A DNA stretch of 64,000 bases from Longimicrobiales bacterium (GTDB lineage: Bacteria; Gemmatimonadota; Gemmatimonadetes; Longimicrobiales; Gaopeijiaceae). Below, piece after piece: positions 3,564 to 39,500 of the stretch (within the stretch, counting starts at the first letter, position 1; each line of letters opens with the position of its first letter). Under the pieces are notes generated by a model that was not told the origin of the DNA, ran no database searches, and worked only from the letters and a program-made list of their open reading frames with translations. The translations under genes were made by a program, and so were the position numbers. The DNA is taken from the NCBI GenBank assembly GCA_965238005.1, contig OZ250165.1, forward strand, positions 2,656,001-2,720,000, read 5' to 3'.

Positions 3564-3761
3564 ATGGAACGCCTACTCCAACTGATCCACGGGATACTCC
3601 CCCGCAGTCTGTGGCAGGTGCTTGGGATCTATCTTTCCTGAATTCGAGTTTTGGCTATCGGGTGCCGATTGGTACTGCTCCCGAGGTGACTCGTTCTCAC
3701 GGTATACGTTGTTTGGCCCATATGATGGGGCACCGCTCCTCTCGCTTTCGGGACACACTCG

Positions 3762-3851
3762 ATGTCCGACGCCACCTCTCGCCTAAACGCCGCCCTAGAA
3801 GGCCGCTACGCCATCGAGCGTGAGCTGGGCGAGGAGATGAAGCAGGAATGA
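3762..3851 (+). pseudogene. Ser/Thr kinase 5' stub A (29 aa)
   Basis: MSDATSRLNAALEGRYAIERELGEEMKQE*; its TGA overlaps the next ATG (ATGA, 3848-3851). Confidence 0.85.
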
Positions 3852-4091
3852 ATCGCCGTATACTGCCGCTCCTTATGGGCTCGCTTCTTCTCCTGCTGGG
3901 CTGGGGGTGTAACGACGACCCTACCGGCCCAACCGATCCGTTCTGTAGCAGCCAGCCAGCCTCGGCCATCGTGACGTTCGAGGACGCCAACTTGGAGGCA
4001 CAGGTTCGGGCTGCACTCTCGGTCGGTGCTCAGGAGGATCTCACCTGCGGCCTGGTATCTGGGGTGGGGGTCCTACGTAACAACATCCTAG

Positions 4092-5692
4092 GAGTCTGCG
4101 CCGCAGAACCCTGCGGCGGCTATCTTTGGTGGTAGCGAAGGCATTGGGAAGGCTTGCGGATCACCGAGGGGGGTGAATGGGAACGACATTTCGACCGTAC
4201 GATCCGGAGCAGATGTTGTTGCTGCCTCCGGATCTTCGGGAGTGGGTGTCGGAGGGTCATTTGGCGCACCATGTGAGCGACCTGGTGGACGCGGTGGAGC
4301 TGAGCGCGTTCTACGGGCGGTACCGGGGGGACGGGCGGCGCAACTCGCCGTACGACCCTCGGATGATGGTCAAGGTGCTGATCTACGCGTATGCGACGGG
4401 CACCTTCTCGTCGCGGAAGATGGCGAGGAAGCTGGAGGAGGATGTCGCGTTTCGGATGCTGGCGGCGGAGAACTTCCCGAAGCACCGGACGCTGTGCGAG
4501 TTCCGCAAGCGCCATCTCGGGGATTTCCGGGCGGTGTTTGTGGAGGTGGTGATGCTCGCGCGGGCCTTGGGGCTGGCGGGGCTTGGCAGGGTGTCGGTGG
4601 ACGGGACGAAGGTTCGGGCGAACGCGAACAAGCGCAAGGCGATGAGCTACGGCCGGATGGTGACCGGGGAGCCTCGGCTGGAGGCGGAGATCCGGGGGCT
4701 GTTGGAGAGGGCCGAGGCGGTGGACGAAGCGGAAGACGAGCGCTACGGCGAGGAAGCATGCGGAGACGAGGTGCCGGAGGAGCTCAAGCGGCGCGAGGAC
4801 CGGCTGGCGGCGATCCGGGAGGCGAAGGCGCGCCTGGAAGCCGAGCAGAGAGCGGCGGACGACGCACGGGGCCGCAAGCCGGGGCAGACGCGCAACCCGA
4901 AGGGCGGCAGGCCCTACAAGCGGGAGTACGGAGAGCCGGACGAGGCGGCGCAGAGCAACTTCACGGACCCTGAGAGCCGGATCATGAAGACGAGTTCGGA
5001 GGGGTTCCAGCAGTGCTACAACGCACAGACGGTCGTGGAGGGGGAGAACCAGCTGGTGGTCGGGGCCGAGGTGACGGACAACGCGAGCGACCAGGGCCAG
5101 CTGGTGCCCATGGTCGACGCGGTGGCGCAAGCGTACGGCGAGATGCCGGCGCAGGTGCTGGCGGACACAGGCTATTGCAACGAGCGGGATCTCGAGGAAC
5201 TGGAAGAGCGAGACATCGACGGGTATGTGGCGCTGGCCCGGGAGGGCAAGGCCGCCCCCACGGTTGACAAGGAGGAATATCCGGCGAAAGTCCGCATGGC
5301 GGAGAAGCTGGCGAGCGAAGATGGCCGCAGACGCTACGCACGGCGAAAGTCGCAGGCCGAGGCGCCCATCGGCTGGATCAAGGAAGTGATGGGCTTTCGA
5401 CGATTCAGCTTCCGGGGCCTCGAGAAGGTCCGGGCCGAGTGGACCCTCGTGTGCCTGGCACTCAATGTGAAGCGGCTGCACACCCTTCAGGCGGCATGAC
5501 TGCACGAGGGTTCACCCGCATCTGCCGGCGCGAGGGCTCTCGTAGCTCTCTTGCCCCCCCAACGCATCCATTCCGCTCTCCCGATCCGTCGCAGACACAA
5601 GTCCTCAACCTCCCAATCACCCGGATCCGCCTCGCCGCGGACGGCTCGATGACCATTCGGCTCAGTCAGCTGTGCTTCTGCGGCGCAGACTC
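4092..5692 (+). mobile_element. Complete IS1182-family element, CTAG target duplication
   Basis: Perfect IR GAGTCTGCGCCGCAGAA at both ends, CTAG at 4088-4091 and 5693-5696. Confidence 0.93.
4177..5499 (+). CDS. IS1182-family transposase
   Basis: YDPRMMVKVLIYAY, VDGTKVRANA, TDPESRIM, YNAQ, LADTGY, GFRRFSFRG. Confidence 0.93.
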   Translation: MGTTFRPYDPEQMLLLPPDLREWVSEGHLAHHVSDLVDAVELSAFYGRYRGDGRRNSPYDPRMMVKVLIYAYATGTFSSRKMARKLEEDVAFRMLAAENFPKHRTLCEFRKRHLGDFRAVFVEVVMLARALGLAGLGRVSVDGTKVRANANKRKAMSYGRMVTGEPRLEAEIRGLLERAEAVDEAEDERYGEEACGDEVPEELKRREDRLAAIREAKARLEAEQRAADDARGRKPGQTRNPKGGRPYKREYGEPDEAAQSNFTDPESRIMKTSSEGFQQCYNAQTVVEGENQLVVGAEVTDNASDQGQLVPMVDAVAQAYGEMPAQVLADTGYCNERDLEELEERDIDGYVALAREGKAAPTVDKEEYPAKVRMAEKLASEDGRRRYARRKSQAEAPIGWIKEVMGFRRFSFRGLEKVRAEWTLVCLALNVKRLHTLQAA

Positions 5693-6344
5693 CTAGCGCC
5701 CGGAATCAGGAGCTTGGCAGGCATCGAGCACCTCACCAGCCTCGTCGAACTCAGCATCGGCTTCAGCTCGATTACGGACATCAGCCCATTGAGCGGACTG
5801 ACAAGCCTAAGGGTCCTCCGCCTCGGTTTCAACTCGATCACGGACATCAGCCCGCTGAGCGGGCTAACGCGCCTGACTGGTCTTTTCCTCCGAGGCAACT
5901 CAATCACCGACATCAGCCCGCTGAGCGGGCTCACGAGCCTGACGGACCTCAGCCTCCGTGACAACTCGATCAGCGACATTAGTGCGCTGAGCGGGCTCAC
6001 GCGTCTGACGACCCTGCGGCTCGACAACAACTCCGACCTCAGCGACATCCAGCCCCTGCTGGACAACACAGGGCTTGGAGCGGGCGACGAGGTCAACCTC
6101 GTTGGCACGGGCGTGAGTTGTACAGACGTGGCTGCCCTGGAAGCCAAGGGAGTGAGCGTGACGTCCGACTGCCGTGACGACGCGCTCGTCACGATGAACC
6201 GAGCCCGCTCGTTACGTATTCGAGTGAGACATTATGAGACCTACGGAAAGACAGGACGGGTCAGGGGTGCGTACGATAGGTGTGTGGTGGGTCAGCGTTG
6301 CGAGGGCTTCGCTCGATTGCCTTACGCCGTCGTTACGGGAGGCT

Positions 6345-23057: not shown

Positions 23058-23234
23058 ACACATAGGTTATACGCCAAATCACGGGAGATGCCCGGTTTCC
23101 TTCGCGTTTCGGAGAAAATTTCCTGGAGTCGGAATCGCCGTTTCCGGGCATCCAAATACGTCAAGTATTGGAGCGCGCCTTCGGGAGGATCTCGAATCGG
23201 GAATCGCTCCCCCTGGGACTTTCCCTTCGAGAGG

Positions 23235-23364: not shown

Positions 23365-23436
23365 GACGTGAGACTTCAGCGGGCGGTGGGGCTCCTCAAC
23401 CCCGGTCCAGCACATCGTGGACTCCGTCTTCGCCGT

Positions 23437-23874: not shown

Positions 23875-24029
23875 CGTTGATACTGGTCTTCGTTCAGACG
23901 TTCATACGCTGAATGAACGAACCAATACCGCCGAATGTGACACCCTCGAATATAAAATATGCCTCGTGCCGCAGGGCTACGAGGTCGCGTGGTGCGGCCC
24001 TACACCCGTTGGGACGTCCCGACCTTCCG

Positions 24030-24269
24030 TTATTCCGCCGTTCGAAGGTGACTGAAACCCGAATCTTCCCCGAGCATCTGCTCGTCGAGCCACCGGTCGA
24101 GGATGCTCTTTCGAAAGCGCCATTCCTTTCCAAGTTTGGTGGCCGGAATGCGCTTTTCCTGGGCCCACTTATAGATCGTTTGGGGCGTCAGACGCAGGTA
24201 CTCGGCGACCTCTTCGAGAGTGAGGATGTCGTGGCTGGCATGTGCGGCGTTCCGGCGGCTGTCGGTCAT
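24030..24269 (-). CDS. Excisionase-like (HTH_17/BldC-like) DNA-binding protein
   Basis: ILTLEEVAEYLRL, TIYKWAQ, IPATKLGKEWRF. Confidence 0.9.
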   Translation of the reverse strand: MTDSRRNAAHASHDILTLEEVAEYLRLTPQTIYKWAQEKRIPATKLGKEWRFRKSILDRWLDEQMLGEDSGFSHLRTAE

Positions 24270-24273
24270 ACGA

Positions 24274-25089
24274 TCATTGCAGCGTGTCGGAAGTGTCGGC
24301 GGGCTGAAGGAGCTCCTCGATGCGGAGCTGCCCCACGCTATCCGGGCTCACCTCTCTTGGTCGGTCCTCCCCTTGAAACAACTGGTTCACGGAATAGACG
24401 ATAGCTGCGTAGAAGTTCCCCTCGTAGTCTCGGAACAGGGTGAAGGGCTGGCCGCGGTCCCCGAGGAAGGGGCGCAGATTCCACGCCATCTGGATGCCGA
24501 CGAAGGCAAAGAGCACAGCCCATGCCCGCATGATTGTAATTGCCTTCTTGGGATACACGCCTCGTTTCTCACAGACGAGCGTGAGGCCCTCGTGCAAGGC
24601 GTACATACCCAGGAGGCCAGCTGTGAGCACAATGAGAACGTGCAGCAGTTCCAGGAAGTAGTAGTTCGCGCCAGTGATCATGAAGAACGCGGTGATGGGG
24701 ATGAAGGCCGCGAGCAGGATCGCTGTCAGTGCGAGCGCGCCGAGTACGAACACCAGTAGCTGGAGGAGGCGCAAGCGCGAACCAACCAGGATTTGAACAA
24801 CGAAAAACGCGGGAAAGCAAACTGCGAAGGTCGCAAGTAAGAGGAGCGGGAGCTTGAGAGCGGCGGACAGAGCTTGAAGGCTGCCTGAGTAGACGCCGGC
24901 TACCGCCCCGTAGAAAGCCGCCAGTCCAACCAGTGTCGCCAGTGCATAGCGGAGCTTGCCCGTCAGATCCGTTCCTTCGACGACCTCGCTAAAGAACCGC
25001 TCTCGGTCGCTCAGTAGCGAGAAAAGGAAACCCTGATAGCCGGCTTGGACGGGCTGGGATTCAGACGGTCCGGAGGGTGGTGTCATCAT
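24274..25089 (-). CDS. Multi-pass membrane protein
   Basis: About 5 TM helices; KLPLL, QMAWNLRPF, NFY. Confidence 0.75.
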   Translation of the reverse strand: MMTPPSGPSESQPVQAGYQGFLFSLLSDRERFFSEVVEGTDLTGKLRYALATLVGLAAFYGAVAGVYSGSLQALSAALKLPLLLLATFAVCFPAFFVVQILVGSRLRLLQLLVFVLGALALTAILLAAFIPITAFFMITGANYYFLELLHVLIVLTAGLLGMYALHEGLTLVCEKRGVYPKKAITIMRAWAVLFAFVGIQMAWNLRPFLGDRGQPFTLFRDYEGNFYAAIVYSVNQLFQGEDRPREVSPDSVGQLRIEELLQPADTSDTLQ

Positions 25090-25120
25090 GGGTACCTCGC
25101 GGAGCAGGACCCGTAGGTTT

Positions 25121-25185
25121 GTCAGTGTTTGATAGTGTTTACATAGCTATCCTACGCTTTATTAGTGTTTGATGCAATTTGTCAA
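25121..25185 (-). promoter_or_regulatory. Promoter (TTGACA at 25185-25180) with phased AGTGTTT repeats
   Basis: AGTGTTT at 25124, 25134, 25164 in an AT-rich patch upstream of the membrane protein/HTH operon. Confidence 0.6.
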
Positions 25186-25461
25186 AACGACCACACGGGG
25201 AGTTCCGAACCCACTCGGCTCCCCCGCACCCTCCATCGCCTTCTCACCGGCCCCTACGGCACCCTCCCCCTCCCGATCGTGTTCGTGTCCGTCCCAAACC
25301 AGATGGTCCGTGTAGCCTCGTGGAAGGGATAGGCCATTCCCAAAGGCCTTTGGCCGAGTTCAGCATCCTCCTCGGGCGAGCCGAGGCACCTCAAGGACAT
25401 CCCCTTGCGAGGCCGTGCCCAGTTCAAGGTGCACGCTCGCCGTTCGCCCATGCAAGGACGA

Positions 25462-25608
25462 GCCGACAACGCCCCTCTAAGCCACGAGTACGCTCCGGCC
25501 TACCTCCTCCCAGATACCGAATAAAACCTGAAGACGCGCAGAACGCGCTCTCAGGCGTTCTGCTTGCGCCTACTGGACCACTCTCGGATGTTCACCACGG
25601 TCTGATCC
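25462..25608 (+). repeat. ~150-bp kinase-leader repeat, copy 1
   Basis: CTCTAAGCCACG..ATACCGAATA..GAAGACGC..CAGAAC..GTTCTGCTTGCGCCTACTGGACCACTCTCGGATGTT..CTGATCC shared with 26835, 31032, 32143. Confidence 0.92.
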
Positions 25609-25629
25609 TCCGATGCTGGGGAACGCTCG

Positions 25630-25791
25630 ATGTCCGATCCCATCGTCCGCCTGAACACAGCCCTAGAAGGCCGCTACGCCATCGAGCGTGAGCTTGGTGA
25701 AGGTGGGATGGCTACGGTCTATCTGGCCGACGACCTACGCGATGAACGGAAAGCCGTGCTAAAGGTCCTCAAACGTGAGGAAAATCGGTGA
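25630..25791 (+). pseudogene. Ser/Thr kinase 5' stub B (53 aa)
   Basis: MSDPIVRLNTALEGRYAIERELGEGGMATVYLADDLRDERKAVLKVLKREENR*; GTGA overlap with the next ORF. Confidence 0.88.
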
Positions 25792-26180
25792 GTACGGACG
25801 ACGGCGGCGTTTGGGATCGTGCCCAGAAAGCCCTGGACGAGAGCTCGTCGCACATGGCCGAGCGGAGCGCCCTCAGGGTGCGACTCACGGCGTACATCGC
25901 TGAGCGGAGCGCCTGCGAGGCTAAGGGCACAGTCCCTCGCGGCGTTCGGAGACGGGGGGAGCGGCTCCTCGAGGAAGTCTCCGCTCTTGAGGAGCGCTTA
26001 GACCCGGTCGCCGATCGGATAGCAGAAGGAGACGCAGCCGTCCTCGTGGACGATGGAGCCACAAAAGCAACCGCCCCCACACGCCGCCTTGACACGGTGG
26101 GGGGAGAGGCTAAGCCTCCGCCTCCGCCACCTCCTTCGCCTCGAGTAACGCGTCCTCCGAGCCGAGGGTGTGGGGGTTGA
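25788..26180 (+). CDS. Hypothetical protein with Pro-rich tail
   Basis: 130-aa ORF; GTG start overlaps the stub B stop. Confidence 0.45.
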   Translation: MSTDDGGVWDRAQKALDESSSHMAERSALRVRLTAYIAERSACEAKGTVPRGVRRRGERLLEEVSALEERLDPVADRIAEGDAAVLVDDGATKATAPTRRLDTVGGEAKPPPPPPPSPRVTRPPSRGCGG

Positions 26181-26235
26181 GAAGGCGCTCGAAGTCCCGG
26201 CGAGGTCTGAGTAGCATCCACTCAGGAGGGCATCT

Positions 26236-26763
26236 ATGTCGGGCAAGGCGATACGGAAGCACGAACTGCGGAAGGCGGCTCGTGAGCACGTTGACCACGA
26301 AATGGCTCGATTCCTTGACTTGCATGTCGAGATCAATCGGGGATCGCACCAAGGGATCGTGCTCGGTGCAATTCTCACGGCGTACGCTTCTCACGCTCGC
26401 AACCTGCTCGAGTTCTTTAAAGAACGCACGCCCACGAGACCCGCGCTTCATCCGGGAACGGCCTACTTCAGTCTCTACCTCCCTTCGGGTGTCTTGAACC
26501 GGTTTGCGGGGCTGTACAACGGGCCAGAGGAGCACGTTTGGTCTCGCGCTACACAGCAGGTGGCGCACTTGAGCGGCTTCCGCGCTGGGGCCGATCTAAG
26601 ACGAAAGCGCTGGCGAAGGCTCAAGGAGTGGGGCAGCCGCTATCACCGAGACGCCATCCTCCCGAAGATCAGAACGGCCCTGGACGAAGTGCGGGGTGCG
26701 GCCACAACCTTCCCGAGCACCTTCGCTGCCTTCAGACGATGGGAAGCGGCAGGAAAGCCTTAG
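26236..26763 (+). CDS. Hypothetical helical protein
   Basis: AGGAGG RBS; HARNLLEFF and QVAHLS are reminiscent of HEPN-like proteins (weak). Confidence 0.55.
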   Translation: MSGKAIRKHELRKAAREHVDHEMARFLDLHVEINRGSHQGIVLGAILTAYASHARNLLEFFKERTPTRPALHPGTAYFSLYLPSGVLNRFAGLYNGPEEHVWSRATQQVAHLSGFRAGADLRRKRWRRLKEWGSRYHRDAILPKIRTALDEVRGAATTFPSTFAAFRRWEAAGKP

Positions 26764-26834
26764 CTTGGTCATCGCGTGCTTTTCGCGCTGGGGCTGCCAT
26801 TGGTGTGGCTGTAGCGAGCCGTCCGAGGCCGAAC

Positions 26835-26985
26835 CCGTTAACGGCGTTCTAAGCCACGCGAGCGTTCCAGCCTACCCAGGATACCGAATAAACCCCGAAG
26901 ACGCTCAGAACGCGAATACAGGCGTCTGACAGGGTTCTGCTTGCGCCTACTGGACCGCTCTCGGATGTTGAGTACACTCTGATCC
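26835..26985 (+). repeat. ~150-bp kinase-leader repeat, copy 2
   Basis: Starts CCGTTAACGG; same blocks as copy 1. Confidence 0.92.
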
Positions 26986-26995
26986 CGGAGTGCCC

Positions 26996-27496
26996 ATGTC
27001 CGATCCCATTGAACGCCTCAATACCGCTCTAGGGGGCCGCTACGCCATCGAGCGAGAGTTGGGTGAGGGCGGCATGGCCACGGTCTATCTCGCCGAGGAC
27101 CTCAAGCTTCACCGCAAGGTCGCCTTGAAGGTCCTACGACCGGAACTGGCCGCGGCACTCGGCCCCGAGCGTTTCCTCCGCGAGATCGAGATTGCCGCCA
27201 AGCTGCATCACCCACATATCCTTGCGCTCCACGACTCGGGCGAGGCCGATGGCTTTCTCTACTACGTGATGCCTTACGTCGAGGGCGAATCACTCCGCGA
27301 TCGCCTGAATCGGGAGAAACAACTTCCCGTCGAGGACGCCCTGCAGATCGCTCGGGAAGTGGCGGACGCGCTCGGCTCCGCCCATCGCCACGACGTCATC
27401 CACCGCGACATCAAGCCGGAGAACATCCTGCACGGCGTCGTCCACCGCGACATCAAGCCGGGCAACATCCTGTTGAGCGAGCAGGGAAAGCCACTC
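26996..27496 (+). pseudogene. Truncated Hanks-type Ser/Thr kinase (stub C, subdomains I-VIb)
   Basis: LGEGGMATVY, VALKVL, HPHIL, HRDIKP twice; no DFG or APE. Confidence 0.92.
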
Positions 27497-27515
27497 GACA
27501 CCGGAGGGGAACATC

Positions 27516-27905
27516 ATGCGGTATCTCATCCTGGCCCTGGCTCTGAACACCGGCCTCACCGCCTGCGCCAGCGGCGGTGCGGGGAGTGGGGGAGCCGGCG
27601 GGGCGCGGAACCTGATCACCTTCGAGGAGATCAGGCGGGTGGACAATCTTCGTGATGCGTACGAGATGGTGCAGATTTTACGGCCGCTCTGGCTCCGGGC
27701 CCGCGGAACGGTCAGGCCGACAGATCCGAACGCGAGCCTGCCCAGGGTCTACGTGGACGAACTGTGGTTCGGACTGGGGCTCGAACACCTGCGGAGGATC
27801 ATCTCCACCACGGTCCATCAGATGCAGTTCCTCGATCGATCTGAGGCAGAGATGCGGTACGGGTCGGGGCACCCGGGCGGGATCATCATGGTCCTGACCC
27901 GGTAA
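27516..27905 (+). CDS. Small lipoprotein, TonB-plug-like
   Basis: Lipobox LTAC; ITFEEI, LRPLWL, PRVYVD, RYGSGHPGGII. Confidence 0.75.
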   Translation: MRYLILALALNTGLTACASGGAGSGGAGGARNLITFEEIRRVDNLRDAYEMVQILRPLWLRARGTVRPTDPNASLPRVYVDELWFGLGLEHLRRIISTTVHQMQFLDRSEAEMRYGSGHPGGIIMVLTR

Positions 27906-27919
27906 GGCGGCGTGCGCGC

Positions 27920-28278
27920 ATGGGCCTAAAGCTTTTCGCAGTCGGCGCTGTGGTCGCTGCCATATTTCCGGCACCGTCACTAGCGGGCCAAGGCAATTGG
28001 CGTGGAGACTGCTGGCCATTGGCTACATCATGGCGTTCGCAGGGTGGATCGCGTTTGCTGTTCCGAATCTCTGGTCGCAGGCCCTTCCTCGTTGGAACCG
28101 ATTGCCGCTGTTGATCGGGCTGATCCCAGTGGCGGGGGCGGTTTTCATTTACCTAAGCGACTGGGTTCTAGCCATCGGGGCCGGCCTCTTCGGCGTGGCA
28201 TGGCTCCTACTGGGCTACGCCGTCTGGTCCGCCGAAGGTGTCCCTGCCGGAGGGACCACGGAGACGCCCCAGGCTTGA
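27920..28278 (+). pseudogene. Membrane protein fragment, probably frameshifted
   Basis: Hydrophobic helices split across two frames; ALPRWN, GVAWLLLGY. Confidence 0.4.
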
Positions 28279-28777
28279 ACACGCCATTGTCGCCGAAGTT
28301 CAGGACATCGTCGTCCAGAACTGCTGAGTGCTGTCAGGACCTCAGTTTGAGATGTCCTCGAACAAGCTGATCCGCTTCGAGGACCGGGCTTTGCGCCACT
28401 GGAATGGCATTCCCCTCATTATCGTACTGCTGCTAACTGGATGGATGATCGAGTCTCCCAGATGGATGCCATTGCTGCTCATGACGTTGTTCGGTGTGGG
28501 TTGGGTGATGCTCGGCTATGAACTCTGGCGCGTTACCCGATTGGATCACGGTAAAGCCACGATAATCCGATCAGGCTGGGCCAGCCCGTTCATATCTTCT
28601 GGGGGCCACGCATCAGTCCGATCCAGCCATCGCCCAACCTCAGCATCACCCATAGCTTGAGCGCATGGGCATGGTGAGGCTGTCGCGGTAGGCATCCGGC
28701 TCGCGTACTTCGCTTGCGGTCGGCATCTTGGACGCGCAGTAGAGTCGCAGAGACGTTAGACCGTCGGGAGGATAGCC

Positions 28778-29422
28778 ATGGCCGAAACTAAAGAAGTCAC
28801 GAAGCCGCGGGACTACCGCCGGCGGCGGTTGCCGCTGCTTCTCTGTTGGCCACTTTGCTCGTTTTTGATCACCGGATGCCGTGCATCGGAAGAACAGCAG
28901 ACGCTCAGTGATGGCCCACGTTACCTAAATGGAACGAGCCTTGTGCGTCCAATTGACTATCGCGAGTGGCCATTCGTTGGTTCGGCTCTCGGCTTGACGT
29001 ATGAAGCCGAAACAGCTTCGTCAGATGCGCCGCCCATTTTCACGAACGTTTTCGTGAATCCCTCTTCGCACCGCGGCTTCATGGAGACGGGGGTGTGGCC
29101 GAGCGGCACCGTGTTCGTTCTAGAATTCAGGCGCTCTCAGACTGACGCAGCCCCAAATAATAAGGGAGGGCGATTTCAAGGCGATTTGTTGGGCTTGGAG
29201 GCCGAGGTAAAGGATTCCCGATTTTCGGACGGATGGGCGTTCTTCAACTTCGGAAGGGGCACAGATCTAACAGAGGTTGCGGCCCCGCTGTCAGGTGCTG
29301 CTGCGGCTCCGTGTGTACAGTGTCACACGAAGGAAACGGCCGTGGAACGCACGTTTGTACAGTTCTATCCCACGCTGCTACAAGTGGCTCGCCACAAAGG
29401 CACGCTGAAACCGGGGTTCTGA
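28778..29422 (+). CDS. Cytochrome P460-family protein
   Basis: DYREW, NVFVNP, WPSGT, EVKD, GWAFF, CVQCH, FVQFYP. Confidence 0.85.
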   Translation: MAETKEVTKPRDYRRRRLPLLLCWPLCSFLITGCRASEEQQTLSDGPRYLNGTSLVRPIDYREWPFVGSALGLTYEAETASSDAPPIFTNVFVNPSSHRGFMETGVWPSGTVFVLEFRRSQTDAAPNNKGGRFQGDLLGLEAEVKDSRFSDGWAFFNFGRGTDLTEVAAPLSGAAAAPCVQCHTKETAVERTFVQFYPTLLQVARHKGTLKPGF

Positions 29423-29429
29423 AACGGGA

Positions 29430-30312
29430 GCCTGTATGAGCGGTACCCCTCAAACAACTCGTAGTCGGCGCTCGAGCGGGTGACCACGGCGAGTCCGGCA
29501 TAGGCCCACAGGTTGCGCTTCGTGCGGAAGCGCCAAGGCGTACCAATGGTTGCCAACAACAGCGCGATACGCACGGGCCCGCAGTAGGGGATCGTCTCGA
29601 GCACCCCAAAGGCCGGATCGCGCTTCGCTTCAGCGACCATGGCCGCCTTGGTCTTCTTGCGCTGAGTCCGAAGCACATCGAGCTGAGCGTACAGGGTCTC
29701 GGCACGTAGCCGAGCACCGTGCTCGGGTAGCTGTGCGACCCAGGCGGCGCGCCCCTTCGGCTGGTAGACACCGCCGCCCGTGGTTCGGATGGCCCGCGCA
29801 CGGAAGAGTGCCTTGAGCCGCAGCATCACGCGCGTGCCGTCCTCGACGAGGTTGCGATAGGCTCGAGTCAGCTCCTTGAGATCGGCCCGGCCGTGTGCGC
29901 CGTGGTATACCGCTCGCAGGCTGCCGCACCGCAACTGCTCCGACAGTTCGTCGGCATCGACCTGGTCCCCCTTGTTGCCCGATCGCTTCTCGCCTCTGCG
30001 GTCGCACACGATCACCCGGTCTACACGAGGACTCAGTAGGTCGTAGAGCCACTGCGCCTGTGTTCCCTCCTCGAACACCACGTGCACCGACCCAGCCATC
30101 GCGCTGAAGAACTCCCTTATCGATTCGTCGCTCGTCTCCACCACGCTGCGCGCGATCACACGCCCCCCTTCGCTCCGAACCGTCGCCACCGTCATTGCCT
30201 GGTGCACGTCGAGCCCCACATACTTGGTGTTCCGCTTCATGAGAGCCGCCCTCTGCTGTGGTCCATGGTTGTTTCGCAACTCCACGGTACCCACAGGGGG
30301 CGTGCTTTCAAG
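29430..30312 (-). mobile_element. IS110-family element, 3'-truncated transposase (ATG 30240)
   Basis: YVGLDVH, FEEG, KGDQVDA, IPYCGP, YAGL; ends just after TRSSAD. Confidence 0.85.
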
Positions 30313-30385
30313 TTGTGTTAGAGCGCAGCTGGCCGGCACAGGTGAGTGAGGCTGATGCCAATGCTCGCCACGTGCAGTGGCTCGC

Positions 30386-30811
30386 TTAAGAGCGGTTCAA
30401 GATGATGCGGAGTGTGGCCGCAACGGAAGAACCGCTCCCGAAGTCGAACTGGCTGGCCGGGTTCGTGAGCGTCAGAACGTTTCCGTTCCGAGACGCATCG
30501 AACGGGGCGCCTGCGAGCGTGAGCGTGGTTCCGGACGAGTTCAGGGTCCCGGAGTCCGAACTGCTGCCACCAACACCGTCGTCGAACAGAGTGCTCGCAC
30601 TTCCGGCGGCATCCACGGTAAGCGTAAAGCTCGCGCCGTCGCGCTGGATGATGTCGGCGACATTCTGAGAGTTCGCGTTATCTGTGAACTCATAGACGGA
30701 GGCGGTCCAGGTTCCCTCTAGATCAACCGCTTCTAGGCCAGTACCGTCGTCACCGCAGCCGACGGTGACAACGGCCAAGGCAAGAATGGGCAGTAGACGA
30801 TGGAGCTTCAT
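30386..30811 (-). CDS. Beta-rich lipoprotein
   Basis: Lipobox VGC, LEGTW. Confidence 0.75.
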   Translation of the reverse strand: MKLHRLLPILALAVVTVGCGDDGTGLEAVDLEGTWTASVYEFTDNANSQNVADIIQRDGASFTLTVDAAGSASTLFDDGVGGSSSDSGTLNSSGTTLTLAGAPFDASRNGNVLTLTNPASQFDFGSGSSVAATLRIILNRS

Positions 30812-31031
30812 TACCTGAGTCCTTTTCGGGGGATGGAAGGCGAGTTGAAGTAGGGGCGCTGCAAGGGGAGTGCCAGCCTGAAGACCCTGCACAGGTCCTA
30901 CAGGGCGTGGTGTCTAGCTGGTCGGCGGGGTGGACCCTTGTGGAACAACATTGCCGCCCTCAGCAACCTCTTTGCCCCCCCCGCCCGCCGTGCTGCCGCT
31001 GGTGCTGCGTTAGTCGCGAACAGATCAGCAA

Positions 31032-31199
31032 GCCGATAACGGCCCTCTAAGCCACGAGCACGCTCCAGCCGGACCCAAATACCGAATACACCCCGAAGAC
31101 GCTCCAGAACGCGAATACAGGCGCCTGACACGGTTCTGCTTGCGCCTACCGGCCCGCCCATAGGATCTTGCTCAAGTGTGATCTGCCGTAGCCGAGGAC
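31032..31199 (+). repeat. ~150-bp kinase-leader repeat, copy 3
   Basis: GCCGATAACGGCCCTCTAAGCCACG..GTTCTGCTTGCGCCTAC..GCCGAGGAC. Confidence 0.9.
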
Positions 31200-31205
31200 A
31201 TCCAG

Positions 31206-32078
31206 ATGTCCGATCCAGTTGACCGCCTGAACGCAGCCCTAGAAGGCCGCTACATCATCGAGCGTGAATCGGGCGAAGGCGGGATGGCCAGAAACCTTCT
31301 TCGAGGGAGCCGCGGTCGATCCCCTCGAGCTGGTGCAACAGCCTTGAAATCGGCCACGAAAGCGGACGTTATGGTCAAGAACAACAAGAGTACGCCAGCC
31401 ACGTCACCCGAGGCGGGAATCTCCATCATCGGCATGGGGATGATGCTGAAGGGAGAATGCGAGACGGACGGCGCTCTCAGGATCGAAGGGACCGTCAACG
31501 GGGACGTTCACGCAGGCAAGGCCGTGGTGATCGGCAAGGAAGGGCTCGTGGACGGCAACATCTACACTCAGGACGCGGTCATCGCCGGTCGGGTGCTCGG
31601 CTCTGTTCACGCGTCACGTCTCGAGCTGCAATCCACGGGTTACATCGAGGGGGAGGTCGTAGCGCTGCGCATGCAGCTTGCTGAGGGTGCCACACTCACG
31701 GGTCAGGTGTCGGTAGGTGAGTCCCAAGCTCCGTCCCGCGGGAAGGCTGCCACTCGTGGGGAGGGTGCCGTAATCCACGGTCAGGTGTCGGTAGCGGACT
31801 CTCAGGCCGCGTCTGGCGGGCAGGCTTCCGCTCGTAAGAAGGGGGCCCCCGAGGGCACGCCGGAGGATGGTAGGAGAGAGCATGTAGGCGCGTTCATCGC
31901 GTCGGCGTCAACGGCGATCAGGAAGGCACTGGCGTCCCCCGGGTGGCCGAAGCCCCGGGCGTTGCCCGCGACGTCACCCGGGATGAACCCGGACGAGCAA
32001 CCCACACTGCCTCCGGCCCAAGGCGAAGGCCGCCCGAGCCAGATGCCGCAGCAGCCCCCGACGACGCGGCCGACATAG
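31206..32078 (+). CDS. Kinase stub D fused in frame to a bactofilin-like protein
   Basis: MSDPVDRLNAALEGRYIIERESGEGGMA, then SIIG, LRIEGTVNGDV, VIGKEGLVDGNI; alternative own start ATG 31371. Confidence 0.85.
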   Translation: MSDPVDRLNAALEGRYIIERESGEGGMARNLLRGSRGRSPRAGATALKSATKADVMVKNNKSTPATSPEAGISIIGMGMMLKGECETDGALRIEGTVNGDVHAGKAVVIGKEGLVDGNIYTQDAVIAGRVLGSVHASRLELQSTGYIEGEVVALRMQLAEGATLTGQVSVGESQAPSRGKAATRGEGAVIHGQVSVADSQAASGGQASARKKGAPEGTPEDGRREHVGAFIASASTAIRKALASPGWPKPRALPATSPGMNPDEQPTLPPAQGEGRPSQMPQQPPTTRPT

Positions 32079-32142
32079 TCTTTCCACAACCGTGGAAACG
32101 CCCGTTATGCTGTTGTGGTGTATTGGGTTCAGAGGAGAGCAC

Positions 32143-32300
32143 GCCGTTAACGGCCCTCTAGGCCACGAGGGCGTTCCAGCCTACCCCAGGATACCGAAGA
32201 CGCTCAGAACGTGTTTGCGAGCGACTGACAGGCTTCTCCTTGCGCCCACCGGACCACTCTCGGATGTTGACCTCGGTCTGATCCTCTTCGTGCCGAGGAC
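32143..32300 (+). repeat. ~150-bp kinase-leader repeat, copy 4 (no kinase codons)
   Basis: GCCGTTAACGGCCCTCTAGGCCACG..CTTGCGCCCACCGGACCACTCTCGGATGTT..CTGATCC..GCCGAGGAC. Confidence 0.9.
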
Positions 32301-32407
32301 TTCGTGAAATCGAGCTCGCATTCCCCCGGACGTGGAGCCGACCACTCCCTACCTATCGCTGATGCTTGTCGTCGCCGGAGGGTGATTCCGCGTAGGAAGA
32401 CGGTTCT

Positions 32408-34354
32408 ATGGAGCGAAAACTCGCGGCGATTCTGAGTGCGGACGTCCAGGGCTACAGCCGTCTCATGGGGGACGACGAGGTGGCCACGATCCGCACTCTC
32501 ACGGCCTATAGAGAGGTGATGTCGGCTCTGATTCAGCAACGCCAGGGCCGGGTGGTGGATTCGCCGGGAGACAACCTACTCGCGGAGTTCGCCAGTGCCG
32601 TCGACGCGGTCGAGGGAGCGGTCGAGATCCAGCGTGAGCTCGGGACCAGGAACGCGGAGCTCCCCTCCCGTCGCCGGATGGAGTTCCGTATGGGGATCAA
32701 CGTGGGCGACGTCCTGGTGGAGGAAGAGCGCATATACGGTGATGGCGTCAACATCGCTGCTCGTCTCGAGAGTCTGGCGGCTGGCGGGGGGATCTGCATC
32801 TCGGGGACCGTCTACGACCAGGTCAAGAACAAGCTGTCCCTGGGCTTCGCGTATCAGGGTGAGCAGGCGGTGAAGAACATCGCAGACCCGATTCGCGTGT
32901 ACACCGTCGGGCCGGACACCCTCGAGTCGCGTACGATCGAGTCGGACACAGCGGTGGAGAGGCCCTCCATCGCGGTTCTGCCGTTCGTCAACATGAGCCC
33001 CGACCCCGAGAACGAGTACTTCTGCGACGGGATCTCGGAAGAGATCATCAACTCGCTTGCGCAGCTTCCCGAGCTCAAGGTCGCGGGTCGGACATCGGCA
33101 TTTTCGTTCAAGGGGACGGATCTGGGAGTGCCGGAGATCGGGACCAAGCTGAAGGTCGCCACGGTCCTGGAGGGGAGCGTGCGCAAAATGGGGGACCAGC
33201 TCCGGATTACAGCGCAGCTCATCGACGTCGAGAGCGGATACCATCTCTGGTCCGAGCAGTTCGACCGACAACTCGACGACATCTTCGCGATTCAGAACGA
33301 GATCGCGACGAACATCGCCGAGCGGTTGGAGGTGACGATCGGAAGTGGGGCGCGAGGGCCGAGGCTGCAAACCGACAACGTCGAGGCCTACGAGCTCTAT
33401 CTGAAAGGCCGTGTCCTGCTGTATCAACGCGGAATGGCGATGTTCCGGGCGCGGGAATGTTTTGAGGAGGCGCTTGCCCTGGATCCGCAGTACGCGTTGG
33501 CCCACGCCGGTCTGGCCGACAGTTACTCGATCCTCGGCTACCACGGATTCATCGCGCCCCCCGAAGCATGGCCGCCTGCCCGTCAGGCCGCCGAGCAGGC
33601 CGTCGCGCTAGCGCCCGAGCTCGCGGAGGCGCACAATGCGCTCGCAATCGTTGCCTTCGCCCGGGATTGGGACTGGGTGACGGCGGGCCGTGAGTTTAGG
33701 CGCTCCCTCGAGCTTAATCCGGGCTACGTGCAGGCCCGAGTTTGGCACGCCGTGGCTTGCCTGCAGGGGACGAGGGGGGACCATGACGCTGCAATCGCAG
33801 AGGCGCGAGTGGCGGTGGACATCGACCCTCTATCCGCCTACACCCACACAATGCTCGCGTATGTCTTGACGCAAGCCGGCCGAGCAGAAGAGGCGGTTGA
33901 GGAAGCCCGAAGAGGGGTGGAATCCGATCCGGATTCGTACTGGGGCCAGTTTGTGCTGGCGACCGCGTACCACTGCGCCGCCCGCCTTTCGGAGGCGGAA
34001 GGCGCGTATCAACGGGCGTTGTCCGCATCGGGACGTAATCCTTTGGCCCTGGCGAACCTGGGCAGGCTCTATGCGGAGTGGGAGAAGCCAGCGGACGCGG
34101 CGGCGGTTGACGCCGAGCTCATGGCCCGATCCCGACAGAAATACGTGCAACCCATCACTGTCGCGCTAGCCGCGGCGTGTGCCGGCAGGGCCGAAGAGGC
34201 CCTCGCGCTACTCCAACGGGCCTGCGAAGAACGCGATCCCTGGCTAGCATGGGGTGCGCTCACTTCGCCATGGTTCGAGCCCTTGCGGGCATTCCCGGAA
34301 TACGAGGAGATACTGACGCGAATGAAGCTGCCAGTAACTGGCAGCGATTCGTAA
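32408..34354 (+). CDS. Class III adenylate/guanylate cyclase with TolB-N-like and TPR domains
   Basis: ERKLAAILSADV, GDGVNIAARLE, SIAVLPF, VLEGSVR, TPR helices. Confidence 0.93.
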   Translation: MERKLAAILSADVQGYSRLMGDDEVATIRTLTAYREVMSALIQQRQGRVVDSPGDNLLAEFASAVDAVEGAVEIQRELGTRNAELPSRRRMEFRMGINVGDVLVEEERIYGDGVNIAARLESLAAGGGICISGTVYDQVKNKLSLGFAYQGEQAVKNIADPIRVYTVGPDTLESRTIESDTAVERPSIAVLPFVNMSPDPENEYFCDGISEEIINSLAQLPELKVAGRTSAFSFKGTDLGVPEIGTKLKVATVLEGSVRKMGDQLRITAQLIDVESGYHLWSEQFDRQLDDIFAIQNEIATNIAERLEVTIGSGARGPRLQTDNVEAYELYLKGRVLLYQRGMAMFRARECFEEALALDPQYALAHAGLADSYSILGYHGFIAPPEAWPPARQAAEQAVALAPELAEAHNALAIVAFARDWDWVTAGREFRRSLELNPGYVQARVWHAVACLQGTRGDHDAAIAEARVAVDIDPLSAYTHTMLAYVLTQAGRAEEAVEEARRGVESDPDSYWGQFVLATAYHCAARLSEAEGAYQRALSASGRNPLALANLGRLYAEWEKPADAAAVDAELMARSRQKYVQPITVALAAACAGRAEEALALLQRACEERDPWLAWGALTSPWFEPLRAFPEYEEILTRMKLPVTGSDS

Positions 34355-34387
34355 TGGCTGAAGAGACCTGAGCTGAAGACTAGGCCC

Positions 34388-34531
34388 ATGACCGACCCCA
34401 TCACCCGTCTGAACGCCGCCCTGGAAGGCCGCTACGCCATCGAGCGTGAGCTGGGCGAGGGCGGAAGGGTGCGTACCATCTATGATCAGAGCTTGACCCG
34501 ATGGGGCCTCCCGGTCCCGCCGCCGCAGTAG
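34388..34531 (+). pseudogene. Ser/Thr kinase 5' stub F
   Basis: MTDPITRLNAALEGRYAIERELGEGG, then unrelated sequence. Confidence 0.88.
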
Positions 34532-34600
34532 ACGCCCCGCAGGACGCCCGCCCCAACGACGAACCCGGAGCAGTGTTGAGCCGTGCGCCGGAGGTACGTC

Positions 34601-35662
34601 ATGAAGCGCTTCCCCTTGCTCCTGTGGACAGTCCTGATGCTTGCCGGGTGTCAGGACCTTGCACAGCAAGCGATGGGTCCGCCCGAGAACCCCGGTCCGC
34701 CCGAGAACCCCGGTCCGCCTGAAGACCCCGGTCCGCCTCCGTTCCTGGACCCTCCCAAGATCGCCTTTGTCAGCAGCCGAGACGGGAATATCGAGATCTA
34801 CACGATGAGCGCAGACGGATCGGGCCAGGTCCGCCTCACCAATAATAGCGCACAAGACCGCCTCCCCCGTTGGTCGCCGGACGGGACGAAGATCGCCTTT
34901 CAAAGCAACCGAGACGGAAACAGCGAGGTCTACGTAATTAACGCAGACGGATCAGGCCTGGCGAACCTCACTAGCCACGCGTCGCGTGATGACACCCCGC
35001 AATGGTCACCGGACGGGACGAAGATCGTCTTTGTCACCAATCGCGACGGGAACGATGAGGTCTACGTAATGAACGCCGACGGATCCGGGAAGACGAACCT
35101 CACTAACGATTCCGCCACCGATGCCCCCACGTTCGTCCGCGCCTGGTCACCGGACGGGTCGAGAATCCTTTTTAGGAGCCAGCGCGACGCGAGTCGTGGC
35201 CTTTACGTGATGAACCAAGACGGCTCGGGCGTGACTCGTCTCACGAGCATCACGGCCTTGAACGGCAGCTGGTCACCGGACGGGACGAAGATCGTATTCG
35301 ACAGCAGCGGTGACATATGGGTGATGAACGCCGACGGGTCGGGCCAAACCAACCTGACCAATGACCCAGGCAGAGGAGATTCCTTTCCCCATTGGTCGCC
35401 CGACGGGACGAAGATCACTTGGGATGCGGAGGGTGAGGTCTACATAATCAGCCCCGACGGAATGGGCCAGGCGAATCTCACGAACAACGCGGCCTACGAT
35501 TTTCCCCAATTCTTCCTGCCGGACGGGGCGAAGATCGTCTTTGGCACGACTCGGGACGGAAACGATGATCTCTACGTGATGAACGCCGACGGATCGGGGC
35601 CGCAACAGCTTACGAATAGCCCCGCGCTCGACGACGAGGCAGATCTGTGGCCAAAACCGTAA
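34601..35662 (+). CDS. TolB-like (PD40 repeat) beta-propeller lipoprotein
   Basis: Lipobox [12 protein letters not shown] repeats; N-terminal GPPENP-type repeat x3 (18-bp tandem). Confidence 0.92.
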
Positions 35663-36447
35663 GGCGGGCCTCCCCACATGCGCTGCGTGTTTACCAAGGC
35701 CAACCCGCGCTACTGACGGCGTCTAGTTTGCGGTACGGCTGACGAGAGGACAGAGGAGAATCCTGGGGGGGATAGGTATCCCAAACAGTGCTAGGTCACG
35801 CGGTCTACGATCACCGGTCGAGGGCGCTCCACGATGGCACTCCGTTTCCCCTCCCTATGTGCGAAGCCCCTTACAAACATCAGGAGTGGGAAGCTCCCTC
35901 AGAGATCCCGACTGGGCTAGCAACACACGCAGAAAGTGGAACATGGGTTAGGGAGGACACACCTATGCTACTCCACACCTTTGAGTACATCGTCCGAAAT
36001 GCGCTTCTGAAGTGGTGGGCATCCCTTACGACGGATGGTGGCCAGAATCTCTCAGATTAAGCTGCCCCCACGCACGTCGGACTTCCCCACGCTCCCTCAA
36101 TATCAGGCAGCAAGTAGTAGCCCCCGCTCGTTACTGGTTCAGTTTGGGCGGGAGTCAAGCCAGGGGCAATTCGAGCACGCCTTCTAGCAAGCGATTAGTG
36201 TTGTCGCGGTAGGCGACGTGAACACCAGCGAGCCGCGCCCCGGTTGCCGTAGTCGCAATGGACGAGCAAGCCGTTAACGCGGCTTCAAGGTCGGGGCAGA
36301 TGGCTGTTCGTCGTTCGCATTCTTCGATCTGTTCCCGGCGCAGTAGACAGGGCCTTTGGTGAAGGCGTGAGCGTGATCATCGCGGCGGGGGGCACAGTGG
36401 GAGCCACGGCCACAAGTAGGTTTGACACCCCGCTATAGCATGAAAAC

Positions 36448-36557
36448 TATAAAGTGTTGTGAATCATATAGTTAGCGTCACTCATATGGATATCGTTCCC
36501 TCTTTATATCCCTTTTTCAGGCCGGGATTCCAATAGAACCTAGCGGACCTTCGCGGA
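36448..36557 (+). repeat. AT-rich 110-bp island-end (att-arm-like) sequence, copy 1
   Basis: Ungapped 70/110 match (hand count) to 56281-56390. Confidence 0.7.
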
Positions 36558-36596
36558 CAGGTTGTCGGGGTGTGCCAACGAGCGGTGGCGGTCGCA

Positions 36597-39500
36597 TCAA
36601 CCGGCACCGCGACGTGCCTCATCCGCCTCCGACCTGGTCTGGAACGCGTCGGGCCAGCGGCCATGGGCATCGATGACCTCGTCGATCTCGGCCATGATGC
36701 GGATGGTCTCATTCAGGGCGACGACGATCTTCTGGTAGTGGGCAACGTCCTCGTCCGAGAGCGTGCGGCCTTTCCGGTCCTTGAGCCACTTGTGGCAGAC
36801 CTGGTAGCCGCCGATCTGGAAATCCCAGACCTCCTCGGGCACGCCCTGAAAGCCGATGGTGCCGGGCCTGGTCGCACGCTGGCCCTCGCGGGCGTTGGTC
36901 TTGCCGGCGTCGAGCCAGACGGTGCCGTCCGACCAGCCGACGCGGCCGACTTCAGGGTTCTTGGGGCCGGTGTAGGTGGTGATGAACTCGTCGAGCTCTA
37001 GGGACTCGAGCACGTGTAGGACCAGCAGGTCATGACCAGCCTCCGCCAGCTTTCGGAAGAGGTCGACACTTTCGGGCAGCGGCACGCGGGGGAAGTCGAG
37101 CTTGAGCTGGGCCTCGTAGCGCTCGCGGTAGCCGGGGCTGTGGAACACCGAGTAGATCCAGGCCAGCACGTCCTCGGGGCCGAAGGTCTTCCGGAGATCG
37201 CCGCGGCCATCGCTGACGAAGCGCAGTTCGGTGGCGGTTGCAATCTGCTCGACGAACCCCATGTCCAGATTCGGCGTGCGACCGTCCTTGCCCTTGGCCC
37301 AGCGGCTGAACAGCGAACCGTCGGCCTTGCCGACTCCGGGATAGAGGTATAAGGGAAAGAGCGAGTTGATGTCGTAGGCCGAGCAGGTCTTGTGCGCGAT
37401 GATGTTGGACGTCGCTAGTGCGCCCCACTCGTCTTTTGTCTGCCTCGTCGTAATAAGGCCGACATTCTCTCCCGCGAGCATGTGCCCCATGACCTCCACT
37501 ACAGGCCAGCCAATGAAGCCCCGGCTTCGCCCAGTGTAGTAAATGAAACGCCTATCGAATGGCCGGTAAAGGATGGGCGTGATGCAACGCCTTGAGGGAC
37601 CGCTATCGCGGACATCCTTCTGAGCCCAATCGAACTGCCAATCACGTACATCGGGAGGCAGACTGAAATGCGTTCGCGCTTCCTGTTGGGACAGACGAGC
37701 AAAGGTTGTTACTGTGTTCCAGACGGTGTCAGGGTCGAAGCGTATGGATAGTGCATCACGCTTTGTTATCACTCCTGTGCCGCCTATCTGAAATATCTCT
37801 CGAACTGACGTCCATTCTTCGTAGTTATCTCCACGGCTTGCGAATGGCTTGAACAAGTAGAAGCGAGCACGTGGTGCAATTCTTTCCCAAGCAGTTTCTG
37901 ATGCCGTATTGGCAATGAGACAGTCGTACTTGTGTGCCCTCGCTCCCCAGCAGTTCGCATGGCGCACACGGGGGTAAGAAACCTCGTGAGCCCCGGGAGA
38001 CGTTTTGACGAACAGACCGATTGCGACGCCCTGTTCGATGTCGAAGACGTTCTCGTCCTTGTGACCGTCGGGGGTCACCTCTTTCTTCTTTACGTTCCCG
38101 TGTAGGTCCAGCAGGAACAAATGGTCGAAAGACGCTAGCAATGCCCATCGCATGCCACGGAACGTCGGATTGTCGATATAGCTGTGATTCGTGATGAAGC
38201 CGTGGATTCCCATGCCGGACAGTTCCAACAACCAATTAGAGAGCCGCGTGAATTGGACGTAGAGGTCGTTCAACCACTTCGAGTTGCGCTCGTTCAGTGA
38301 CTCGCCGTCCACCTCGAAGTAGCTCAAAGTCTTGCAGCCCATCCGGATCTCCCGACCGCGCATGAGCGCAGCGATCCAGTCACCGCCGCGCCCGGCCTCG
38401 GCGAGGTACGGCGGATTCCCGATCACCACCGTGAACCGCCGCTTCCGCTTGATCTCGCTGACCGCATTGGCCTCGTGCGCCAGCGCGGGCAGGAAGTCGA
38501 GCATGAGCTGCTCGTCCGCCGCCGGCTCCAGCGCATTCGTGAGGTACACCCGTGCCCGCTCGTCGCTTTCGAAGCGGTAGCCGGTCTCGTAGAGCTTGAG
38601 CCCGATCTTGACGTGCGCGATGGCGTACGGGGCCATCAGCAGCTCGTACCCGTGCAGGCGCGGCAGCAGGTGCTTCGGGACGTACTCGTTCCAGAGTGTC
38701 CGAATCTTCTTCTCGCCGTGGCCCTGCGACTTCCACTTCACAGCCATCGTGTTGTGGATGAGATCGATGACCTCGACGAGGAAGGTGCCGATGCCGGTGG
38801 CCGGGTCGAGGATCTGAACGAAGGTCTGGGTGGGCGAGGTGCCTTCCGGGATCTTCAGATCCTCGTGGCGCTTGGCCATCTCGCCCCAGGCGGTGGTGTC
38901 GGCGAGGCCGTCGGTGAGAGCGAATTCGCTCCGCAAGAGCTCGTCCACCGAGCGCACGATGTAGGAGACCACCGGGCGTGGCGTGTAGAAGACGCCGCGG
39001 CTCACCTTTTGCTTCTTGTCGTAGGCGGCGAGGAAGTGCTCGTAGAAGTGGATGACCGGGTCTTCCTGGGGGTTCCGGTCGCCGAAGTCGCGGACGACGG
39101 CCTCCATGTTGGCCCGGTCGAGGAGTTCGACCACCTCGGAGACGCCCAGCTCGTCGAAGTCGATGCCCGGGCCGCCGGCCCTGCCGCGGCGTCCGCCCAC
39201 GCGCAGGAAGGTCTCCATCAGCTCCCGGAGGAACGGGTTAGTCCGCATGTGGGCGGCGAAGTCGTCGGCGGTGCGCCGCGCGGGGTCGGTGATGCGGGCC
39301 GAGAGCAGGCCGTATGCGATGGTCTGGGCGTACATGTCGGCGAAGCCGGCCTCGTCCAGGTCGTGGACGAGCGCAGTCCGGAACGCCTTCATGAGCTTGG
39401 TGAGCGGCCCGGACTCGGTCTCGATCGCAAGCACCGTCCGGATGCGGTCGCGGATCGCGCGGGCCAGCTCGGCCAGGCGCTCGGAGAGCTGCTTCGAGGT

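Follow-up and report, generated by a model that had tools for sequence, protein, structure and literature searches.

Leaders, kinase 5' ends and tails in the window

We analysed a 64,000-nt stretch (the window) of the genome of a Longimicrobiales bacterium, a single contig of 4.84 Mb with 64.8% G+C, labelled G000 below. In this stretch a non-coding repeat of about 170 nt, which we call the leader, and the 5' end of a Ser/Thr kinase gene recur upstream of unrelated genes. A first-pass annotation had read these units as a cassette-like array that captures genes. For comparison we used G001 and G002, two congeners of G000, and G011, a genome from another genus of the same family. We argue that the units are probably relics of a Ser/Thr kinase family that has been mostly deleted, and not parts of a gene-capturing mobile system.

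A repeat finder placed the leader at window positions 25461, 26833, 31031 and 32142, always on the plus strand. Copy A (25461..25629; nhmmer E 6e-46) comprises an upstream region, a promoter-like motif and a Shine-Dalgarno sequence. Copy B (26833..26995; E 4e-52) belongs to the same repeat family; copy C (31031..31205; E 2.4e-49) is about 94-97% identical to a copy at genome 423.7 kb, and copy D (32142..32310; E 1e-46) is followed by no kinase codons. A further leader trace had been suspected at 36266. The leader profile has no match in the area of 36270, where there is only the 10-mer GCCGWYAACG, a motif with 7 matches in the window against 0.85 expected.

A second repeat, of 83 nt, contains the start codon and first 24 or so codons of the kinase, and occurs at 3750, 25618, 26984, 31194 and 34376, again all on the plus strand. 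The start codons themselves lie at 3762, 25630, 26996, 31206 and 34388, and about 24, 50, 219, 28 and 27 kinase codons, respectively, are retained. The four leaders and five kinase starts first reported here are real, and their right end does vary as described. Two of the starts, 3762 and 34388, have no leader at all. At the first of these, the stub (3750..3834, plus strand; hmm positions 1-73) keeps about 24 codons, with homology ending at 3829-3834. Stub A (25630..25791, plus) is an open reading frame (ORF) of 53 aa with homology to about codon 50. Pseudogene B (26996..27655, plus) has roughly 147-160 homologous codons before a stop, matches residues 18-147 of Pkinase, and contains the catalytic-loop motif twice, owing to a 42-nt tandem duplication at 27389-27472. 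Stub C (31206..31290, plus; 28 codons) now lies within the 5' region of a bactofilin gene, and stub E (34376..34470, plus; hmm 1-82), with about 27 codons and no leader, begins 34 nt past the stop codon of a cyclase gene.

The relationship of these pieces to Hanks-type kinases is evident from sequence homology: Pkinase matches 26990-27655, a kinase N-lobe, with an E-value of 2.7e-35 and gives a weak hit on the 53-aa stub, and three full-length copies elsewhere in the genome also align to the stubs in the window (tblastn). The N-terminus of the family is almost invariant (M-S-D-x-x-x-RLNAALEGRYxIERELGEGGMATVYLA..). These hits, together with the full-length genes of relatives, bear out the earlier proposal that the repeat is the upstream region and 5' end of an expanded Ser/Thr kinase family.

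The family also has a conserved 3' end, which had been overlooked. This tail repeat consists of the last 40 nt or so of the intact kinase ORF ('..NWFEELKxRVPN*') and about 170 nt after it, and has some 20 copies in the genome. Its core in the window (28604..28673, plus), corresponding to sequence after the stop codon of intact family members, is 93-100% alike in G001 and G002. The tail follows only some units. The copy at 28604-28673 closes the unit that starts at 26833; with a leader and kinase at its 5' end and a tail at its 3' end, that unit has both ends of the family, separated by 1.84 kb instead of about 3.1 kb. The tail core (about 50-70 nt) is far better kept than leaders or stubs, and candidate functions are a terminator, a binding site or a small RNA. 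The tail repeat has no match in Rfam, and single copies fold no better than shuffled sequences (z -1.2 and -0.9).

Ends, breakpoints and insertion damage of the copies

An nhmmer profile built from the four leader copies of the window was scanned against the whole genome and gave 44 matches, on both strands and mostly clustered. The pattern is genome-wide and not special to 25462-36279, where a local cassette array had been proposed. Nor is the left end constant, as had been supposed. Most of the 28 copies that reach the leader start share, in alignment, a start near AGATCAGCAAGCCGATAACGG, 10 of the 28 extend some 65-90 nt further upstream into a segment ending '..FALGLPLVLL*', and other subsets share two different upstream sequences; moreover, 16 of the 44 matches begin at model position 18 or later. 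In other words, the left end is variable and neither end of the unit is fixed. A remnant of the upstream segment, ending '..LFALGLPLVWL*', is present in the window at 26762..26814 (plus), where it precedes a leader as in the 10 copies just mentioned.

Several further observations concern this segment and the leader itself. In 7-10 copies the leader is preceded, at a distance of about 20 nt, by the end of a segment (M)GFVSVIIVSGIFALGLPLVLL* whose last codons vary synonymously; its sites include window 26762-26814 and about 30992-31012, and genome 1356743, 375794, 17785 and others. The segment may represent a very small hydrophobic ORF or the terminal part of an upstream gene since lost, and it is not contained in any long ORF of this genome. 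An Rfam scan of the whole window at gathering scores found no match, nor did a scan of 25300-28900 at E<=1, and RNAalifold on 22 leaders gave -7.4 kcal/mol on the forward and -12.5 on the reverse strand, with no convincing conserved structure.

The suggestion that the units spread by one-ended, rolling-circle (IS91/ISCR-like) or other transposase-driven mobilisation, with an origin at the left end of the leader, draws on the many copies with a sharp start near the shared sequence, on a fragment of an IS91-type transposase directly upstream of the leader at genome 375.8 kb, and on the intact IS91-like elements of G011. These elements are seven identical copies, each with a tyrosine recombinase and a 402-aa Y2 transposase. 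However, no intact Y2 transposase gene (PF04986) was found in G000, which has only four fragments, and there are no matches in G001 and G002, although both are rich in leaders; a search for Y1 transposases (PF01797) gave no match. The fragment at 375.8 kb was considered as a link to IS91 and rejected: its intact homologues of about 500 aa end in '..FDQSLPD' and lack the segment that precedes the leader, and the IS91-like loci of G011 show no similarity to the leader. We conclude that this fragment is a chance neighbour.

Other signs of mobility are equally lacking. There are no terminal inverted repeats joining the unit ends, only short scattered inverted pairs, and no target-site duplication in the flanks of the 28-copy leader alignment, as the first-pass annotation had already noted; its further statement that the unit holds no transposase needs the qualification that an IS110-family gene lies inside the array, though not within a unit. 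The copies are only 70-85% alike and differ by substitutions of coding type. A co-occurring HUH or tyrosine recombinase had been named as something to look for; no intact HUH gene was found in the genome, and the window has no match to PF00589. Mobilisation from a fixed origin, with both ends variable, is thus largely refuted, and we regard it as very improbable. The 48 PF00589 matches in the genome, the nearest about 12.9 kb beyond the window end, include many at 0.66-0.88 Mb and 2.73-2.84 Mb, and the chromosome is unusually rich in mobile elements. A single weak, partial RVT_1 match was the only trace of a reverse transcriptase, far from the units.

Insertion sequences (IS) have damaged some of the kinase copies. 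One of them, IS1182-like (4088..5696, plus; 1609 bp; DUF772 and DDE_Tnp_1), begins and ends with CTAG and has 45 copies in the genome at >=99.4% identity, indicating a recent burst. Five of the 45 copies lie inside kinase N-terminal sequence, at CTAG sites; the tetranucleotide is offered by the codons for A-L-E-G or E-L-G in the kinase N-terminus. The stretch 25693-26259 of the window recurs at 98.6% identity at genome 1676254-1676818, a site at which the IS cuts the stub, so that this twin represents the far side of one insertion.

To see where the kinase copies break off, we used a nucleotide profile that covers the gene's first 347 nt. The whole-genome scan gave 53 hits, 36 of them anchored at the 5' end. 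Among these 36, 28 lose homology at scattered points before nt 175 and one at 309; the remaining seven reach the end of the profile, as three complete genes and four longer pseudogenes, so that 33 of the 36 are truncated. The other 17 hits are pieces without a 5' end, or more distant kinases. A search with the N-terminal peptide motif agrees: it has 24 matches in the genome, of which three stand in full-length frames (889-913 codons from the motif).

The clustering of breakpoints could mean that the conserved 5' part of the kinase is a hot spot of breakage or repair, attracting deletion ends or templated patch insertions, for example through a Chi-like site or through break repair that copies a multi-copy template; either would yield short pieces truncated at both ends. 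Many fragments are indeed cut at both ends (hmm 79-131, 98-154, 100-165 and 120-200 are examples), the breakpoints are clustered without falling at one site, and the stubs at 3762 and 34388 have no leader. On the other hand, no common motif or microhomology was evident at the junctions inspected, and some of the internal pieces prove to be the far side of IS insertions or parts of other kinase families. We consider a hot spot improbable.

The kinase family in related genomes and exchange between copies

The number of family members in relatives was determined with a full-length G000 kinase of 921 aa as the query. In G011, 21 matches extend over nearly the whole query in frames of 885-980 aa, several of them head to tail, and there are further long kinase frames beyond these. 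In the genus of G000, intact kinases number three in G000 and one in G001, while G002 has only split or short ones. Related kinase genes are common across Gemmatimonadota assemblies (623 confirmed stretches). A large and old kinase family has collapsed in this genus. The leader is present in many copies in G001 and G002, G011 has mainly its last 60-100 nt, and searches of 37 further relatives did not find it; the 5' 100 nt or so of the leader are specific to the genus. A literature search on kinase paralogues in Gemmatimonadota returned nothing relevant, and we make no claim about what is in print.

If the stubs had spread in a recent burst, they should resemble each other closely. Over the first 21 codons, the G000 copies differ at 2.09, 1.35 and 7.73 sites in codon positions 1, 2 and 3 (82% identity), and the intact paralogues of G011 at 1.72, 0.73 and 7.10 sites (85% identity). 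The kinase starts of G000 and G011 are 82% identical to each other, with nearest neighbours intermixed between the two genomes. Because the divergence of the stubs is as deep as that of intact paralogues and falls mainly in third positions, the stubs come from paralogues that diverged separately while under selection, and not from a recent burst.

A few loci can be compared directly between congeners. The junction of leader, stub and bactofilin gene is common to G000 and G001; in G001 the stub has an in-frame TAG and many replacements, and is less well preserved than the promoter block and the bactofilin gene. An orthologous leader locus (4171.4 kb in G000 and L005 in G001, 90.5%) is a stub in both genomes. 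At two further leader loci, the flanks are an IS copy or are too short to serve as empty sites.

Repeats of 170-300 nt could mislead an assembler, and public short-read contigs do break inside leaders, so one might ask whether the units are an assembly artefact at kinase paralogues. This is the least probable of the explanations that we considered, with next to no weight: the copies are 70-85% alike and not near-identical, and similar units occur in two congeneric genomes. In addition, 26220-26895, 30298-31050 and 31225-32281 are spanned by contigs of the public runs X8 and X9 that match the window with 0 differences, the last interval joining stub C through the bactofilin gene to leader D; these runs are possibly from the source sample, and hence do not count as independent evidence on the assembly.

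The copies are not evolving in isolation. Between unit B and the copy at genome 423.7 kb, similarity is only 54-76% across leader and kinase (26835-27479), but 97-100% across 27480-28579, and it stops at the end of the tail; the switch point coincides with the 42-nt duplication of the catalytic loop. The nearly identical segment (27480..28579, plus; matching about 423.0-421.9 kb on the minus strand) includes a 129-aa lipoprotein ORF (27516-27905). Likewise, leader C and its 24 codons are about 94-97% alike to the 423.7 kb copy, when most pairs of copies are at 75-80%. These tracts show that copies exchange sequence by homologous recombination anchored in their conserved parts.

Promoter-like sequence, downstream genes and the origin of the units

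Upstream of 35 kinase genes of G011 and G002 we found two variants of one bipartite motif. In the first, CTTGCGCC..GGATGTTGA is followed by about 27 nt containing GGAG, and this arrangement is the 3' end of the leader; the second, CTTGCCGCC..GCATCTTGTCC, ends 7 nt before the ATG. Intact G011 kinases carry either the last 60 nt or so of the leader or the second variant just upstream of their start, so that the motif ends 7 nt or about 27-28 nt before the start codon. The motif resembles a sigma-70-type promoter with a short 5' untranslated region (UTR), and the 3' half of the leader looks like the promoter of the kinase family. A scan of 25300-34600 with the sigma-70 consensus returned 0 sites, the proposed motif being weaker than the threshold of the scan. 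The RNA data considered were metagenome and metatranscriptome contigs, from which start, strand and level of transcripts are not readable; those of the RNA-library run X5, which derive from mixed organisms, cover leader and stub bins. In its idea of a handle for expression and recombination, the first-pass annotation is supported as regards the promoter-like motif and the homology-anchored exchange, whereas dedicated gene capture is not.

The genes that follow the units in the window are diverse. After the stub at 3762 comes a leucine-rich repeat (LRR) lipoprotein gene split by the IS1182-like element (3848-4087 and 5697-6418, plus; LRR Pfam hit at 5672-6418). A cytochrome P460 gene (28778..29422, plus; Pfam), either a neighbour or cargo, is followed by the IS110-family transposase gene (29365..30339, minus; Pfam), which has many copies at 94-96% identity in G011 and G001. 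The bactofilin gene (31371..32078, plus; PF04519) is a paralogue of genome 4422930-4422148. Its true start is likely ATGGTCAAG at 31371, downstream of the stub, because in G001 a TAG interrupts the stub and the gene begins after it. The cyclase-TPR gene (32408..34354, plus; Pfam) and a PD40 (TolB-like) beta-propeller lipoprotein gene (34583..35662, plus; Pfam) complete the series. Leaders stand directly before cyclase-domain genes at genome 85.7 kb, 4328.7 kb and 4342.0 kb, as at window position 32142.

Side observations on the window include the following. Over its TPR half (window 32966-34354), the cyclase-TPR gene shows 88% DNA identity to a gene of G011 whose N-terminus is different and of membrane type, and the window gene looks like a domain chimera. 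The IS110 gene (window 29446-30322) has at least 16 copies in G011 at 94-95%, around 465-489, 647-654, 2207-2222 and 3542-3568 kb. They form series in which a 78-nt element matching window 28680-28757 precedes each copy by about 770 nt, and they adjoin the seven IS91-like elements. A 64-nt repeat (89%) occurs at 32321-32384, in the gap that separates leader D from the start of the cyclase-TPR gene, and at 8325-8388, about 0.8 kb upstream of a hydrolase-cyclase gene (9223-10584). A 50-nt direct repeat (98%) at 2803-2852 and 14949-14998 resembles, in reverse complement, the 3' half of a tRNA, and may represent remnants of attachment sites around an island of about 12 kb with hydrolase/cyclase genes, IS copies and the stub at 3762; ARAGORN found no tRNA in the window. 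Transposase fragments and restriction genes are abundant in the window. Directly after the array, the minus strand (36597-43260) holds a Type ISP restriction-modification gene (1169 aa) and a PLD-nuclease/helicase gene (1049 aa), and a NikA-like mobilisation protein is encoded at 43789-44121.

The history that we propose starts from an ancestral lineage of Gemmatimonadota with dozens of Hanks-type Ser/Thr kinase paralogues of about 900 aa, often in same-strand tandem clusters. In this genus the family genes share the conserved upstream region of about 170 nt and a conserved stretch of about 170 nt after the stop codon, with the 3' 65 nt or so of the leader as the putative family promoter (TTGCSS, 17-18 nt, SATSTT) and short 5' UTR with a GGAG ribosome-binding site. 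Most members were then lost through independent deletions, replacements and IS insertions, leaving leaders, first codons and tails as recognisable remains. Since only the conserved pieces survive, a decayed same-strand cluster comes to resemble a cassette array punctuated by leaders. The relics still recombine through their conserved parts, by gene conversion or exchange, so that stubs are refreshed and the sequence between anchors is moved. Where a promoter was left facing an intact gene, such as that for a bactofilin, a cyclase or a lipoprotein, it probably now drives that gene. The first-pass annotation had itself named decay of a tandem kinase array as the scenario opposed to its own, and this scenario fits best, at the level of the family.

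Five observations weigh against this account. First, 28 of the 36 5'-anchored copies stop within the first 175 nt of a 2.7-kb gene, a crowding that plain random deletion does not predict, so that decay has to be supplemented, either by a gradual shortening of the stretch from a surviving promoter to the following gene or by selection against truncated kinases that are still long. Second, the genes downstream of leaders are co-oriented with them in 30 of 34 cases, or in 28 of 34 when stub ORFs are skipped, against 64% for neighbours generally, an excess hinting that retention was not purely passive, with gene calls that are crude (ORF length and GC3). Third, the stubs have few changes in first and second codon positions and look fresher than old neutral DNA. 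Gene conversion would explain their freshness, and is shown for two cases. Fourth, TTGCNN-N16-19-[ACG]AT[CGT]TT occurs in 22 of 35 kinase upstream regions and 14 of 22 G000 copies, and in fewer than 0.1 in shuffles, a count that is circular because the motif was derived from the very sequences counted. Fifth, a search for synteny of window 22500-40500 in G001, G002 and G011 returned only repeats and IS, and decay is therefore demonstrable at family level and not position by position.

Some of the same observations would be expected if leader and first 20-50 codons were a portable expression module, kept by selection and re-placed by homology-anchored recombination, by which accessory genes (bactofilin, cyclases, lipoproteins) were recruited to the former kinase regulon. 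The short coding stretch would then be needed for expression, as a translation initiation region or an upstream ORF, which would explain the crowding within 175 nt. The excess of co-oriented genes, the leader-stub-bactofilin arrangement in two species with its conserved promoter block, the leaders directly before cyclase-domain genes and the exchange between copies all agree with such a module. However, the stub in G001 has a stop codon and decays faster than its flanks, so the coding sequence is not needed there; 4-6 leaders face no co-oriented gene; and the copies are old and diverse. A shortening of the neutral sequence from the surviving promoter to the following gene would account for crowding and co-orientation as well as a selected module would. 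We therefore hold selection for a module to be unlikely, if the most plausible of the alternatives, and decay of the kinase family to be the probable origin of the units.

Read in this way, the finding is one of ordinary genome decay, of some value as a record of a nearly complete, lineage-specific collapse of a large Ser/Thr kinase family, with 1-3 intact genes remaining against 20-30 in the sister genus. It also yields a candidate promoter motif and a conserved upstream region of about 170 nt for this family, neither of which is in Rfam, and shows how conserved gene ends left by decay go on serving as anchors for recombination, by which accessory genes are shuffled. Should crowded breakpoints and co-orientation be the result of selection, the units would be a natural case of promoter reuse on a large scale.

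Four known systems invite comparison. With IS91 and ISCR elements the units superficially share a start that is fixed, a far end that varies and neighbouring genes that are unrelated, but here there is no intact HUH transposase, the start is variable, the copies are old and diverged, and the units contain no transposase gene. Integron arrays are similar in that unrelated genes on one strand are separated by a recurring element; here, in contrast, that element lies 5' of the genes and carries a promoter-like motif and a gene start, no tyrosine recombinase matches in the window, and the tail folds no better than shuffled sequence. Concerted evolution is matched by tracts of 94-100% identity, bounded by conserved parts, within loci that are otherwise 54-80% similar, with the difference that the exchanged tract may carry unrelated genes between the catalytic-loop motif and the tail. 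Finally, pseudogene relics of an expanded family in an IS-rich, decaying region have these points of likeness: truncated copies with intact paralogues elsewhere, scattered independent breakpoints, insertions by IS including a recent burst of one of them, and abundant intact members in a related genus. The units differ from such relics in their bias to the first 175 nt and the upstream region, in remaining near the family consensus, and in that many of them face other, intact genes.

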